From a virus (lineage: Duplodnaviria > Caudoviricetes): a DNA stretch of 64,000 nt. Below the pieces are notes generated by a model, which was not told the DNA's origin, did no database searches, and saw only the letters and a program-made list of their open reading frames with translations. The position numbers and the translations under genes are program-made. Shown piece by piece: positions 7,814-33,699 of the stretch. Location: positions 1-64,000 of the IMG/VR virus record IMGVR_UViG_3300033066_000360, one strand, 5' to 3'. How positions within the stretch are numbered: the stretch's first letter is position 1; each line of letters begins with the position of its first letter.

Positions 7814-8317
7814 ATGAATACTGAATGGAAAGAAATCAATGAAGATTATGTCGTTTCCAGCAACGGAAAGGTCATAAGCCGGAAGTTTGGAAGAATCCGA
7901 TACCTAAAACCTGCAACCAATAGGTGGGGCTATCAATACGTTGCTTTGTGTATGAATGGAGTAAAAACCTATCGCAGCATACACAGACTTGTCGCACTCG
8001 CTTTTCTTGGATCTGTGGAGGGAAAAGAAATCAACCACAAAAACGGAATCAAAAGCGATAATAATGTTGACAATCTGGAATGGGTTACATCTAGCGAGAA
8101 TAAGTATCATAGCTATAAATCCCTTGGACATAAACCGGCAACTGGCGAAACAAACGGCGCTTCAAAACTAAAAGAAAGCCAAGTACTCGATATTCGCAAA
8201 AGACACTCTTCCGGAGAATCAATAAAATCCATTGCTTCCCTCTATAGAATACATCCAAATCACGTTAGTAAGATAGCTAATTTCCAACGATGGGGATGGC
8301 TCACGCGAAGCTCCTAG
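7814..8317 (+). CDS. HNH homing endonuclease (NUMOD4-HNH type with C-terminal HTH)
   Basis: WKEINEDYVVSSNGKV, HRLVALAF, INHKNGIKSDNNVDNLEW, GETNGASKLKESQV. Confidence 0.9.
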   Translation: MNTEWKEINEDYVVSSNGKVISRKFGRIRYLKPATNRWGYQYVALCMNGVKTYRSIHRLVALAFLGSVEGKEINHKNGIKSDNNVDNLEWVTSSENKYHSYKSLGHKPATGETNGASKLKESQVLDIRKRHSSGESIKSIASLYRIHPNHVSKIANFQRWGWLTRSS

Positions 8318-27403: not shown

Positions 27404-27458
27404 GGGTCTGGATGTAAAGGCTGTCCTAGGCGTGTCGGTTCAACTCCGATCAGATCCA
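27404..27458 (+). ncRNA. 55-nt tRNA-like RNA without an anticodon arm, G3-U70/A73
   Basis: Acceptor GGGTCTG/CAGATCC-A and T arm GTCGG-TTCAACT-CCGAT with only 23 nt between them. Confidence 0.6.
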
Positions 27459-27464
27459 CTAAAT

Positions 27465-30555: not shown

Positions 30556-30849
30556 TTGAGCCTTTACCCTCTTAGTCTTTTTCAGGAGGAACTTATGAAT
30601 GACAGAACATGGGCATTTCTAGAAGCAATCAAGAACATGGCGCTTAGCATTATGCCGCTATATGTCGCGTTTGAGAATGATAAATTCCGCTTAGATCTTG
30701 TCGTAGAGATGAGACAAATGGAACAAACCCTCAAAAAGCTACATGCCAGTATCAAGAAGTCGGGGACTTGGGGGGCATCCGAGAGGGAACAGTACATTAC
30801 TATCGACAAGAGAATGGATGAGATACTGTATATCGGTGAAAGGGGCTAG
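30556..30849 (+). CDS. hypothetical protein
   Basis: Likely start at MNDRTW after GGAGG; its stop codon overlaps the 5' strand of mini-tmRNA A. Confidence 0.5.
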   Translation: MSLYPLSLFQEELMNDRTWAFLEAIKNMALSIMPLYVAFENDKFRLDLVVEMRQMEQTLKKLHASIKKSGTWGASEREQYITIDKRMDEILYIGERG

Positions 30850-30911
30850 AAAGGCATTCGACAGCGAGAGTGGGTTCAAACGGCCCAGTCTTATACCCGA
30901 TACTTTCGTTG

Positions 30912-31008
30912 GGGGAAGAAGGGTTTCGACGGTAAGTGATGGCATAAATGGACTTGTCTAAAACCCAGATGATCTTATCGGACGCAGGTTCAACTCCTGC
31001 CTTCTCCA
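30912..31008 (+). ncRNA. ssrA: mini-tmRNA B (97 nt, tRNA-like domain only)
   Basis: GGGGAAG-AAGGGTTTCGAC 5' end; P2 GGTAAG/CTTATC; 3' end GGACGCAGGTTCAACTCCTGCCTTCTCCA closely matches the tmRNA 3' consensus; G3-U70. Confidence 0.72.
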
Positions 31009-31412
31009 TATAAAGAGGAATATGTTGCAATTATTTTAAGCGCAAATTCATACGCATCTTTAGCGCGTATTCCTGATTTTGGGGGCTTTGTCCAAAGCTC
31101 AAGATTATCTGGAGAATTGTCATCACGAATGCCATTCTTATGATGAACCGTTTCTTCCGGAAGCAGATATCTTCCAATCATGGATTCCATGACCAAGATG
31201 TGTTCAAAAATATAATGTCCCTTTCGGGGATGTCCGGGTGGACGAAGAATGAGCTTGTAGCCCTTTTTATGCAAAGATCCTTTGCTTTTCTTTCTCTGAA
31301 AACTGGCTCTTTCTAGGTTAAAGCATCTAATACACGACTTGGCTCTAATTCCGCATTCCTGTCCACAAATCGGACAAGTCTTTTTGCGATTCCAACTCTT
31401 TTGTTTATTCAT
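30990..31412 (-). CDS. HNH homing endonuclease with N-terminal zinc finger, antisense to the RNA array
   Basis: CPICG...CIRC, EHILVMESMIGR, VHHKNGIRDDNSPDNLELW. Confidence 0.9.
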   Translation of the reverse strand: MNKQKSWNRKKTCPICGQECGIRAKSCIRCFNLERASFQRKKSKGSLHKKGYKLILRPPGHPRKGHYIFEHILVMESMIGRYLLPEETVHHKNGIRDDNSPDNLELWTKPPKSGIRAKDAYEFALKIIATYSSLYGEGRS

Positions 31413-31473
31413 ATAGGGAATTATACACGGATTAATGGGTTTGATTCCCCGCTAGTCCACTAATAGGAGGAAC

Positions 31474-31995
31474 ATGATCTTTGAGGTGGAGATCCGCAAG
31501 AAGGTCTTTGAATTCGGATATGTCCGAGTAGAAGCCAAGAATGAAGAGGAGGCTCTTCAAGTTGCCCAAGACATTGCAGATGGTGATGAAGATGGGATTG
31601 AATGGGATTCCATGACGGAAGCAATCGAAGACTCTCTAGAAGCAAGAAATCCTGCCGAGTGGACTAACAACGTCATGATTGGCGACAGAATGGCTGTCCC
31701 GGTCCTGCAAGAAAACGGCTCCTATATATTGGAGTAAGGAGGAGTGATGATCGAGTTTCTTAAACGCAAGGGCTTTGCTCTTGTTCCTGAGTGTGGCCCA
31801 GATTATTGGCACAAGACATTTCCAATCGGAAATATTGTCTGGAGAATCAGCGTCTCTTTTGACGATTGGGGAGTGCAATTCATCTCTATTGGCGGGACCG
31901 ATAGGGGATGTGTCACTCTTTTCAGGGAAGACATGAAGCTTCTTCTACCCATTCTTCGAACAATGACCCTTCTCATGGGAAAGAATGAAGTGTAG
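31474..31995 (+). other. two hypothetical genes (31474-31737, 31744-31995)
   Basis: AGGAGG RBS. Confidence 0.55.
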
Positions 31996-32329: not shown

Positions 32330-32707
32330 ATGGAGAAATGCACAGAGCCTTCCCTTATTAATTATGATGATCGCTTTAAGCTTTACCATCTGAGTGATGA
32401 CTTTGCATGGTTTACGACCGGAGATCCATACGAGTATTGTTCTACGGAGGACGTTGGTCGGGGAAGGGATCCAATAATTCCCAAGGATTCTCAAGATGAG
32501 TTCTTGAGAATTGCCTTTGATGTTCCATATGGAATATTCTTTTCAGAACGCAATACAATGGATTGTGTCAATGGAACTGCCAATTGGCTTGAAACGGAGG
32601 ATGAAACAGAAGTGCTTAGGGGGAAGGATATCCCAGTAAGCAAGTTTTGCGGGGCCATTCTTGCCAGCGGTGGTGAGCTTTGGTTCCCATTGGGGAAGCA
32701 ACTTTAG
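32330..32707 (+). CDS. hypothetical protein
   Basis: Similar in-window to 49269-49670 (AWFTTGD..Y vs AYFTTQ..W; ASGGELWFP vs KSGGMVYLP). Confidence 0.55.
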   Translation: MEKCTEPSLINYDDRFKLYHLSDDFAWFTTGDPYEYCSTEDVGRGRDPIIPKDSQDEFLRIAFDVPYGIFFSERNTMDCVNGTANWLETEDETEVLRGKDIPVSKFCGAILASGGELWFPLGKQL

Positions 32708-32715
32708 GGAGGACT

Positions 32716-33699
32716 ATGGGATTAGCATATATTGGAAAAGTGATTCAAGTTCGCCCAATTGAGGGTGCAGACAGGATCCATTCCGTTCAAGTTGTGTGTG
32801 GTAAGGGTGGGATTTGGAATGGTGTTGCAAGTAAAGAAATAGTAGAAGGCAATCTTGTAGAAGTTTATCTTCAAGACGCAATTCTTCCAGATGGAGAAAG
32901 ATTCGACTTCATGGATAAATATCACCGTAGAGTATCTATGAAGAGATTCAAGGGCGCTCCTAGCGATTGTTTGATTATGTCTTTGGCAGATAGTACTGCT
33001 GATTTACTTGCTAAAAGCGCGCCTCTTTGGGTGGGATTCGACTTGACCGATCTTCTTGGCGTTAAGAAGTACGAGAAAGAGGTTATCTATGGACAGGGAG
33101 AGATTATGGGCGGATTCACTACTCTCCTTCCCAAGACAGATGAACCCAACTTCCAGTCTGTTCCAGATATCGTAAGGGAAACTTTTGCGTATCCATGGAG
33201 TGCAACTCTTAAGTACGATGGAACTTCTTGTACTATTCTAAAGACCGATGAGGGTGAATTGCAGGTCTTTTCTCGAAATATGCGCATTCGAGAGGGATCC
33301 AATAATTACTGGCGTATCGTAGATAAATATGATTTACGAAATGCCATTCTCCCCGGAGAAGCTTTCCAGATGGAAATTGTCGGACCTGGAATTCAGAAGA
33401 ATCCCCTTGGTCTCAAGGAGATTGATGCTTTTGTCTTCAATGCCTTTTGGGAATGGAAACCGGTCCATTATGTTAGGAATTTCCAGAGAATATTGATTCC
33501 GGCAGCAGAGGAAGTGTGTCGATATGGCCCAAGAGATGTTCCAAGCAACGAAGAGCTATGGAAACTTGCAGAAAGAACATATAAGAATGGGACTATTGCC
33601 GAAGGGGTTGTCATTCGGCCACAGCATGCAGACTTTCCAAGAAGCACAATGGGAGAACGGCTGTCTTTTAAGGTAATCAATCTTCTTTACGGGAAATAA
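32716..33699 (+). CDS. RNA ligase (Rnl2 / DRB0094 family)
   Basis: N-terminal IRPIEGADRI-type OB module, PKTDE, motif I KYDGTS, VFSRN, MEIVGPGIQKNP, motif IV EGVV, motif V FKVIN. Confidence 0.9.
   Translation: MGLAYIGKVIQVRPIEGADRIHSVQVVCGKGGIWNGVASKEIVEGNLVEVYLQDAILPDGERFDFMDKYHRRVSMKRFKGAPSDCLIMSLADSTADLLAKSAPLWVGFDLTDLLGVKKYEKEVIYGQGEIMGGFTTLLPKTDEPNFQSVPDIVRETFAYPWSATLKYDGTSCTILKTDEGELQVFSRNMRIREGSNNYWRIVDKYDLRNAILPGEAFQMEIVGPGIQKNPLGLKEIDAFVFNAFWEWKPVHYVRNFQRILIPAAEEVCRYGPRDVPSNEELWKLAERTYKNGTIAEGVVIRPQHADFPRSTMGERLSFKVINLLYGK

Follow-up and report, generated by a model that had tools for sequence, protein, structure and literature searches.

A mini-tmRNA gene of an uncultivated phage split by an insert that carries a second mini-tmRNA and a convergent HNH endonuclease gene

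In an uncultivated phage with a large tRNA gene array (IMG/VR record IMGVR_UViG_3300033066_000360), a resident gene for a reduced transfer-messenger RNA (tmRNA) is split in two by an insert that carries little else than a second, complete gene of the same kind and a gene for an HNH endonuclease. The record is 84 kb long and has 33 tRNA genes within 23.6-32.3 kb; the stretch that we analyzed, its positions 1 to 64,000 (64,000 nucleotides), is referred to here as the window. On the plus strand between 30500 and 31800, an 84-aa open reading frame (ORF) is followed by the front of the resident gene A (A-5'), the complete mini-tmRNA gene B, the HNH ORF on the minus strand, the back end of A (A-3'), a ribosome-binding site (RBS), and an 87-aa ORF (ORF87). 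The best explanation of this arrangement, to which we assign a probability of about 0.7, is that a cassette with the HNH gene invaded A and brought B as a replacement. An earlier note, made from the letters of the window, had described the nested order A-5', B, antisense HNH gene, A-3', with an insert of roughly 520 nt; every element of this order was located, and the insert measures 524 bp against intact A alleles.

The two ends of A can be recognized as parts of one RNA. The acceptor strand of A-5', GGGCTAG, lies at 30843-30849, and its TAG is also the stop codon of the 84-aa ORF; AAAGGCA follows, and then TTCGAC at 30857-30862. P2 is complete, with 9 bp, two of them G-U pairs, formed between AGCGAGAGT (30863-30871) and ACTTTCGTT (30902-30910). 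A-3' is made up of GGG (31437-31439), the T loop TTTGATT (31440-31446), CCCCG (31447-31451), the acceptor strand CTAGTCC (31452-31458), and A (31459). The earlier claim that A-5' pairs with A-3' rather than with the 3' end of B agrees with our counts, 7 bp including G3-U70 for the former and only 5 of 7 positions for the latter. The same note had described A-3' as a T arm followed by CTAGTCC and A. The CTAGTCC and the A are present, but the T arm is not whole: 3 of 5 nt of the 5' strand of the T stem are kept, so that three of the five stem pairs remain and two are gone. In addition, the T loop has a T at 31442, where all seven intact sequences that were aligned have a C. The split gene in the window is not detected with the Rfam tmRNA model (RF00023). 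Because ACCG has been lost at the edge of the T stem, along with the two stem pairs and the T-loop C, A is probably non-functional in this strain, and we regard it as a split pseudogene of which A-5' and A-3' are the debris.

Relatives of the locus were recovered by querying a large protein index with ORF87, which gave eight homologues at 63-85% identity, and by looking up the contigs that encode them. A blastn search of the locus against 50,697 phage records gave no match, and single-protein searches of IMG/VR with ORF87, ORF84, and the RNA ligase of the phage returned no relatives. A mini-tmRNA is found at the locus, without the HNH gene, in 11 related metagenomic contigs, four of which have a hybrid allele that is described below. 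The other seven (L137, L138, L139, L141, L143, L148, and L153) have an unbroken A between the same flanking genes, with neither B nor the HNH gene; they represent five sequence variants, L137 and L138 being identical to each other over the region compared. The intact gene of L139 ends with ...ACTTTCGTT GGAC CGGGG TTCGATT CCCCG CTAGTCC A, and intact alleles score 54-56 bits against RF00023 (56.2 for L139 and 54.0 for L137). The RNA product of intact A, ~97 nt long, corresponds to the tRNA-like domain of tmRNA alone, the part predicted to accept alanine. L143 and L153 encode the exact 84-aa protein of the window, and in both of them A runs straight into ORF87. Since the upstream protein is identical and A is unbroken, we identify these two contigs, by sequence, as exact empty sites.

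Alignment of these alleles with the window gives the position of the insert. Over the 1,200 nt that end at 30912, the left flanks of L143 and of the window share 97% identity; A-5' matches the intact allele of L139 at 70 of 70 positions and that of L143 at 69 of 70, and the region of A-3' (31437-31476) is 95% identical to L139. BLAST alignments to L137, L139, L141, L143, L148, and L153 end at 30912 and resume at 31436 or 31437, which sets the limits of the insert at 30913-31436. The earlier note had proposed a comparison with related phages for an intact A without the cassette, and the seven contigs, with their five variants and two exact empty sites, provide it. None of the relatives without the HNH gene keeps the A-5', B, A-3' order. 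Nor is the match of A-3' to A at the level of chance, because the relatives (L139, L143, L153, L137, L141, and L148) share the same 3' end in an uninterrupted gene, which is homology. The comparison of alleles thereby documents the insertion, its polarity, and its exact site.

The nested locus is 100% identical across 30556-31739 in ten contigs from ten samples, one of which covers only 30849-31739, and two further assemblies have the same nested gene order. With at least 12 independent assemblies in all, it is not an assembly artifact. Close relatives are expected to differ in whether a free-standing homing endonuclease gene occupies a given locus, and the window differs in this way from L143 and L153. 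The exact ORF87 protein occurs on 14 contigs, at least 10 of which carry the HNH gene; the other ORF87 alleles are 63-85% identical and are without the HNH gene wherever upstream DNA is available. Identity to the relatives falls at the insert from 97% in the left flank to ~80% on the ORF87 side, and the ORF87 allele of the window is seen only with the cassette. A distinct ORF87 allele on the right flank is consistent with co-conversion.

The relatives also differ in a small gene next to the mini-tmRNA. An ORF of 91-94 aa lies between the mini-tmRNA and ORF87 in L139 (L139:2720-3004), L137 (L137:2729-3004), and L145 (L145:779-1057); it is missing, start codon to start codon, from the window (31460-31474), L143, and L153, and no remnant of it was found in the cassette or in the rest of the window. 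At the same spot, L141 and L148 have a different small ORF, which resembles the gene at 31744-31995 of the window.

B scores 57.7 bits against RF00023, for which the gathering score is 47, and has the acceptor stem GGGGAAG/CTTCTCC with G3:U70 and A73. It has 33 nt in place of 306 model positions, without the mRNA-like domain, the tag frame, or the pseudoknots, which identifies B as a tmRNA reduced to its tRNA-like domain. B has the diagnostic features of a mini-tmRNA: a D-loop analogue that lacks a stem and ends in TTCGAC, a P2 closed by GAC...GGAC, and a T arm whose loop is of the TTC type. CCA is not encoded in B, and ARAGORN made no tmRNA call for it. In an alignment of five A alleles, the hybrid allele, and B, compensatory changes are found at acceptor pairs 4 and 5 (double substitutions), at P2 pairs 21, 23, and 24, and at T-stem pairs 75-77. 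G3:U70, TTCGAC, and GGAC are invariant across the seven aligned alleles, as are the alanine-identity features (the 7-bp acceptor with G3:U70, and A73; 7 of 7). This pattern of covariation argues for a mini-tmRNA family under selection. The helices of B are preserved by compensatory changes, so B is probably a working homologue, not a decayed copy, and it is presumed to be the working copy at the locus. No SmpB gene was found in the 84-kb phage record, and a scan for sigma-70 promoters and terminators gave nothing usable for B or for the HNH gene.

Reduced tmRNAs of other origin were seen in IMG/VR. A generic mini-tmRNA pattern gave at least 118 matches, which were mostly two adjacent tRNA genes; about eight loci look like genuine reduced tmRNAs, none of them related to A or B. 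Phage contigs L013/L038, L037/L048, L041, L045, L049, and L064 encode RNAs of 85-95 nt, likewise unrelated, that combine an acceptor of 7 bp (GGG...), TTCGAC, GGAC and a T arm, and ...TCCA. They resemble further tmRNAs that have the tRNA-like domain only, and the form may be common in phages.

The hybrid allele bears on where B came from. It occupies the resident locus, with no HNH gene, in L145 (L145:666-763), L146, L147, and L159 (L159:388-485), and combines an A-type acceptor and D region with a B-type P2 (~90% identical to that of B), a third type of T arm (TTGGG/CCCAA), and the 3' acceptor strand CTGGTCC. As far as TTCGAC, L159 matches the window at 100% identity, and the same upstream 84-aa protein precedes its hybrid allele. 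This mixture of A-type parts, B-type parts, and parts of its own indicates that mini-tmRNA alleles are exchanged piecewise among related phages. In the window, B is followed by TATAAAGAGGAATATGT, which can be aligned with the RBS and start codon found 3' of the mini-tmRNA in relatives; GAGGAATATGT (31015-31025) matches the flank of L137 at 11 of 11 bases, and the BLAST alignment of B to L145 extends to 31026. From the B-type P2 in L145-147 and L159, and from the remnant of an RBS and ATG on the 3' side of B, we conclude that B is a former resident gene of the homologous locus in a related phage, and that a few bases of its native flank came along when it was moved.

The ORF on the minus strand of the insert matches Pfam HNH_3 (PF13392) with an E value of 1.6e-9 and 37.7 bits (cut-off, 24.8). 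The catalytic-core residues H90, H91, N93, D97, D98, N99, and N103 are invariant in an alignment with nine homologues. The earlier note had placed the stop codon of this gene in the T arm of B; the HNH_3 ORF is intact, and its TGA is the complement of 30990-30992, within the T loop of B (30989-30995), so that the last codons and the stop, 19 nt in all, are antisense to the 3' end of B. The nearest homologue in a cultured phage is gp182 of Streptomyces phage MulchMansion, at 48% identity over 96% of the protein. HNH calls of 66 aa on L129 and L134 were considered as signs of decay and were rejected, as the DNA is identical to that of the window and only the gene calling differs. The same phage has a second HNH_3 gene, of 167 aa, at 7814-8317 (plus strand) of the window; it scores 55 bits.

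We surveyed the family of this protein through its 80 best homologues in GTDB prokaryote genomes, one per species (L170-L249), with tmRNA genes located by ARAGORN. A convergent tmRNA gene lies directly downstream of the HNH gene in 56 of the 80. A spacing of 7 nt from the HNH stop codon to the 3' end of the tmRNA is the commonest (19 of 58 loci), and in 22 of 58 loci the HNH ORF runs into the tmRNA gene, as it does in the window. If about one tmRNA gene per genome is assumed, the chance of finding one within 700 nt of a random locus would be well under 1%. MulchMansion gp182, the metagenomic P0018 (L169, Rfam 82.7 bits), and the best homologue in IMG/VR (L250) also stand tail to tail with tmRNA genes; eight more distant phage homologues (in Thibault, BRock, GAL1, GiJojo, SlimJimmy, Weasels2, Comrade, and CeilingFan) are not beside tmRNA genes. 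ARAGORN overlooked the tmRNA genes of at least L169 and L250. The hosts of the tmRNA-flanking genes are mostly Actinomycetota, many of them Acidimicrobiia, together with some candidate-phyla bacteria and phages.

On a quickly built tree, tmRNA adjacency is clustered, requiring 14 changes versus 32.7 with shuffled labels. The HNH of the window pairs there with gp182 (Shimodaira-Hasegawa-like approximate likelihood ratio test [SH-aLRT] support, 90), on a long branch, in a group of 64 rows of which 45 are tmRNA adjacent. Its own arrangement is that of the group, since it is convergent with a tmRNA-type gene and the two 3' ends overlap. The survey thus ties a group of HNH_3 proteins, the one in the window included, to tmRNA-type genes. 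A displaced 3' remnant beyond the HNH gene was found in 2 of 58 family loci (L160 and L215), against a control rate of 2 in 1,160; it is an occasional, not a constant, feature of the group. A literature search found no description of a tmRNA-flanking HNH group, nor of an HNH cassette that splits a tmRNA-type gene. Further loci of the group are L160, L169, L250, L257, and L281.

A second pair of before and after states is available in cultured phages. Around the tmRNA gene, LilMartin and Angela share 99% identity with MulchMansion, but neither has the HNH gene. Read in the RNA sense, the LilMartin gene has ...CAGGAC followed by GCGGGTTCGACTCCCGCCATCTCCA, which divides into GCGGG TTCGACT CCCGC CATCTCC A. 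In MulchMansion, ...CAGGAC is followed by GGGGGTTCGAATCCCCCCATCTCCA, which divides into GGGGG TTCGAAT CCCCC CATCTCC A, and then by the antisense HNH gene; beyond the HNH gene stands an intact native GCGGG TTCGACT CCCGC CATCTCC A. The insertion point is the P2/T-stem junction, the same as in the window, the T arm of the cassette has compensatory stem changes, and the native T arm has been pushed past the HNH gene. The imported acceptor strand is the same as the native one, and replacing ~25 nt would therefore have been enough in MulchMansion. In the window, by contrast, the acceptor stem of A is incompatible with that of B, and the whole 97-nt gene would have been imported for that reason, leaving orphans of the 5' and 3' ends. 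The earlier note had proposed a homing endonuclease that is aimed at a non-coding RNA gene and brings a replacement; both the tmRNA-linked HNH group and this phage pair fit such an element, its cutting being a prediction. The displaced T arm and acceptor strand of MulchMansion (MT897905.1; L160:1349-1396) are unannotated and are identical to the native tmRNA 3' end of LilMartin.

These observations suggest how the locus may have arisen. The HNH protein would be a homing endonuclease that recognizes the T-arm DNA of tmRNA-type genes, as SegB of T4 does for tRNA genes (PMC2330249), and it would cut at the P2/T-stem junction. A genome of the A type would have been cut during coinfection with a donor carrying B and the HNH gene. 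With P2 and the T arm so different between A and B that homologous invasion would fail, the break would have been repaired by short-homology capture of a donor segment reaching from the first base of B to the start of the HNH gene, with G30912 common to both genes. In the carrier genome, the altered T arm of B and the mutilated A-3' would leave no cuttable site. No intact A-type T-arm site remains in the window, which is what self-immunity would require, although it is no proof of it. Such an element could occupy an RNA gene without an intron, by bringing the replacement with it.

Several points weigh against an invasion of A by a cassette that brought B. The ORF87 side is ~80% identical to every sampled relative, compared with 97-100% for the left flank, so that the lineage in which the insertion took place cannot be named. 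A donor with B and the HNH gene in their native setting was not found: exact patterns for the 3' end of B, for its P2, and for the 5' 20-mer of A gave 0 matches in IMG/VR and in metagenomes of the Joint Genome Institute (JGI), and the nearest HNH homologues are only ~50% identical. The target of the nuclease, its cut position, and the resistance of B are all inferred. Ordinary homing would replace A and would not nest B inside it; an illegitimate repair step must be assumed, and homology at the junctions amounts to only 1-2 nt. The long branch of the window HNH makes its placement on the tree uncertain. Finally, the protein is without the first (N-terminal) Cys knuckle of its longest homologues, no Shine-Dalgarno sequence and no convincing promoter were found for its gene, and it may be inactive today.

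Recombination without any help from the nuclease has therefore to be weighed. Illegitimate or short-homology recombination between coinfecting relatives, with the mini-tmRNA gene as a hotspot, could have moved a segment in which the HNH gene merely lay beside B in the donor. An identical upstream gene precedes three different alleles (split A, intact A, and the hybrid with the B-type P2), which indicates that crossovers inside the mini-tmRNA gene are frequent even without the HNH gene; the flanks are strongly mosaic, and the little homology at the junctions suits this explanation too. We nevertheless think it unlikely that the HNH gene was a passenger, given that the independent MulchMansion/LilMartin pair, with a homologous HNH, has its insertion at the same P2/T-stem position, that the nuclease group is tied to tmRNA 3' ends in 56 of 80 bacterial loci, and that the insert holds so little besides B and the HNH gene. 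An integrase island or a duplication of an attachment (att) site was also considered and rejected, on the grounds that B and the HNH gene are all that the insert contains and that A-3' matches A, not B.

A functional A was also considered, either through a long transcript that folds over the 524-nt insert, as the earlier note had offered, or through excision of B by tRNA-processing enzymes to leave a two-piece RNA. In favor of it, P2 is complete, the 7 bp of the acceptor can still pair, G3-U70 among them, and two-piece tmRNAs occur naturally (PMC11915505). Against folding across the insert stand the missing T-stem pairs (two of five) and the T that replaces the T-loop C of all intact alleles. 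After excision of B, only the 7-bp acceptor pairing would be left, and ~420 nt of antisense HNH sequence would be attached to the 3' piece. Both forms of a functional A seem very improbable to us. A circularly permuted two-piece tmRNA in particular was rejected: the pieces stand in the order 5' then 3', which is not that of the permuted type, and the permuted Rfam model (RF04321) gives 20.7 bits versus 47, over a different span that runs from the T arm of B into the HNH ORF. A group I intron was rejected likewise, with no Intron_gpI match at E values up to 10 in 30700-31600 and a site that lies at the 5' edge of the T stem, not in the T loop. That the nested form is ancestral, with the cassette lost in the relatives, or that it is an artifact of assembly, is hardly credible. 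Nothing speaks for it beyond the fact that polarity is deduced by comparison; ten independent assemblies are the same at every base and two others agree in gene order, loss would need exact restoration of ACCG and of the T-loop C, and intact A occurs in five sequence variants that span 63-85% ORF87 identity.

Table 1. Features of the split mini-tmRNA locus (window coordinates)
Feature	Position	Strand	Remarks
Upstream 84-aa ORF	30595..30849	+	Stop codon TAG falls within the acceptor 5' strand of A
A-5', orphaned front of the resident mini-tmRNA gene	30843..30912	+	Acceptor 5' strand, D-loop analogue ending in TTCGAC, complete P2, GG
B, complete mini-tmRNA, tRNA-like domain only	30912..31008	+	Rfam RF00023; G30912 common to the end of A-5'
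Insert relative to intact A alleles, 524 bp	30913..31436		Stands in place of ACCG at the 5' border of the T stem
HNH_3 endonuclease gene, 140 aa, convergent with B	30990..31412	-	Pfam PF13392
Remnant of the native 3' flank of B	31009..31030	+	RBS and ATG resembling the flank that follows the mini-tmRNA in relatives
A-3', displaced back end of the resident gene	31437..31459	+	Partial T arm, acceptor 3' strand, A73
Downstream 87-aa ORF (ORF87)	31474..31737	+	Served by the RBS 3' of A-3'

Two other features of the tRNA array region were recorded. An RNA ligase gene at 32680-33699 (plus strand), just 3' of the array, matches Pfam RNA_ligase at 3.3e-10, with a weak OB-fold match, and is conserved in the relatives; its position beside the tRNA genes suggests a function in tRNA repair. 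Between genes for tRNA-Thr and tRNA-Ala, at 27404-27461 (plus strand), lies an alanine-type minihelix of 58 nt without an anticodon arm, composed of the acceptor GGGTCTG/CAGATCC with G3:U70, the T arm GTCGG-TTCAACT-CCGAT, and A73. Its match to tmRNA is weak (18 bits), and the phage may thus have a third mimic of the alanine-accepting kind.

Selfish endonuclease genes are thought to persist in essential genes by splicing, as introns or inteins, or else by staying intergenic. The locus in the window would illustrate a third route, open to an element that enters an RNA gene: to break the target and supply a spare. Natural before and after alleles fix the insertion to one structural position, and the cultured MulchMansion/LilMartin pair uses the same position; with the empty sites and the cultured phages at hand, the idea is directly testable. 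It would explain orphan halves of tRNA-like genes in phage tRNA arrays, which are otherwise missed or misread in annotation, and it gives a likely target to a very common small HNH gene that stands beside bacterial tmRNA genes. It also documents the piecewise exchange of mini-tmRNA alleles among related phages. Taken further, the data may point to a general strategy, unpublished so far, in which an HNH group specialized in the tmRNA-type genes of Actinomycetota, candidate-phyla bacteria, and phages cuts them at the P2/T-stem junction, without an intron, and carries a cleavage-immune replacement, a T arm for a full-length tmRNA and the whole gene for the 97-nt form. This "split-and-replace" drive would also shuffle the alleles of a phage RNA whose probable effect is to disturb ribosome rescue in the host. 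We put the chance of such generality a little above even.

Among known systems, the closest analogue in logic is found in the mobile endonuclease ORFs of fungal mitochondria (Allomyces macrogynus atp6; Glomus atp6, atp9, cox2, and nad3; PMC3630166). In these, as in the window, an endonuclease gene has entered a host gene and has brought a divergent version of the part that it displaces, and the native end is left downstream as an unused remnant, which is closer to the relatives than the imported copy is (PMC3630166). The fungal targets encode proteins, and replacement of the C-terminal part yields a hybrid gene, whereas the target in the window is a non-coding RNA gene for which a whole gene was imported, with orphans left at both the 5' and 3' ends; the fungal nucleases are in-frame GIY-YIG or LAGLIDADG enzymes, and that of the window is a convergent HNH. 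In setting, the closest analogue is SegB of T4 and T6, a free-standing GIY-YIG endonuclease encoded in a tRNA gene cluster, whose recognition site includes the conserved T-psi-C stem-loop motif and whose homing carries neighboring RNA genes along and rearranges the cluster (PMC2330249, PMC13096335). SegB is intergenic, splits no gene, belongs to another nuclease family, and has proven activity, whereas cutting by the HNH of the window is a prediction.

As molecules, A and B are of the same kind as the tmRNA of mycobacteriophage DS6A, which has the tRNA-like domain only and no tag frame (PMC4131195, PMC11915505); the likeness is one of form, and for the DS6A gene, unlike that of the window, no interruption or link to a nuclease has been reported. 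Some tmRNA genes have group I introns in the T loop, a part of them with LAGLIDADG endonuclease genes (PMC11915505), and so likewise host a selfish element with an endonuclease in the region of the T arm. Those genes are restored by splicing at the level of RNA; at the split locus of the window a search found no intron, the insert lies at the 5' edge of the T stem with its nuclease gene in antisense orientation, and rescue would come from a spare copy. The nearest counterpart is tmRNA gene 181 of MulchMansion with gp182, which is like the window in its convergent layout, its insertion point, its imported T arm, and its displaced native T arm, and unlike it in being a full-length tmRNA in which only the last ~25 nt were replaced, with no orphan 5' half. 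Set among these systems, the locus resembles an endonuclease-driven invasion with a carried replacement, known in kind, and extends it to a whole non-coding RNA gene.

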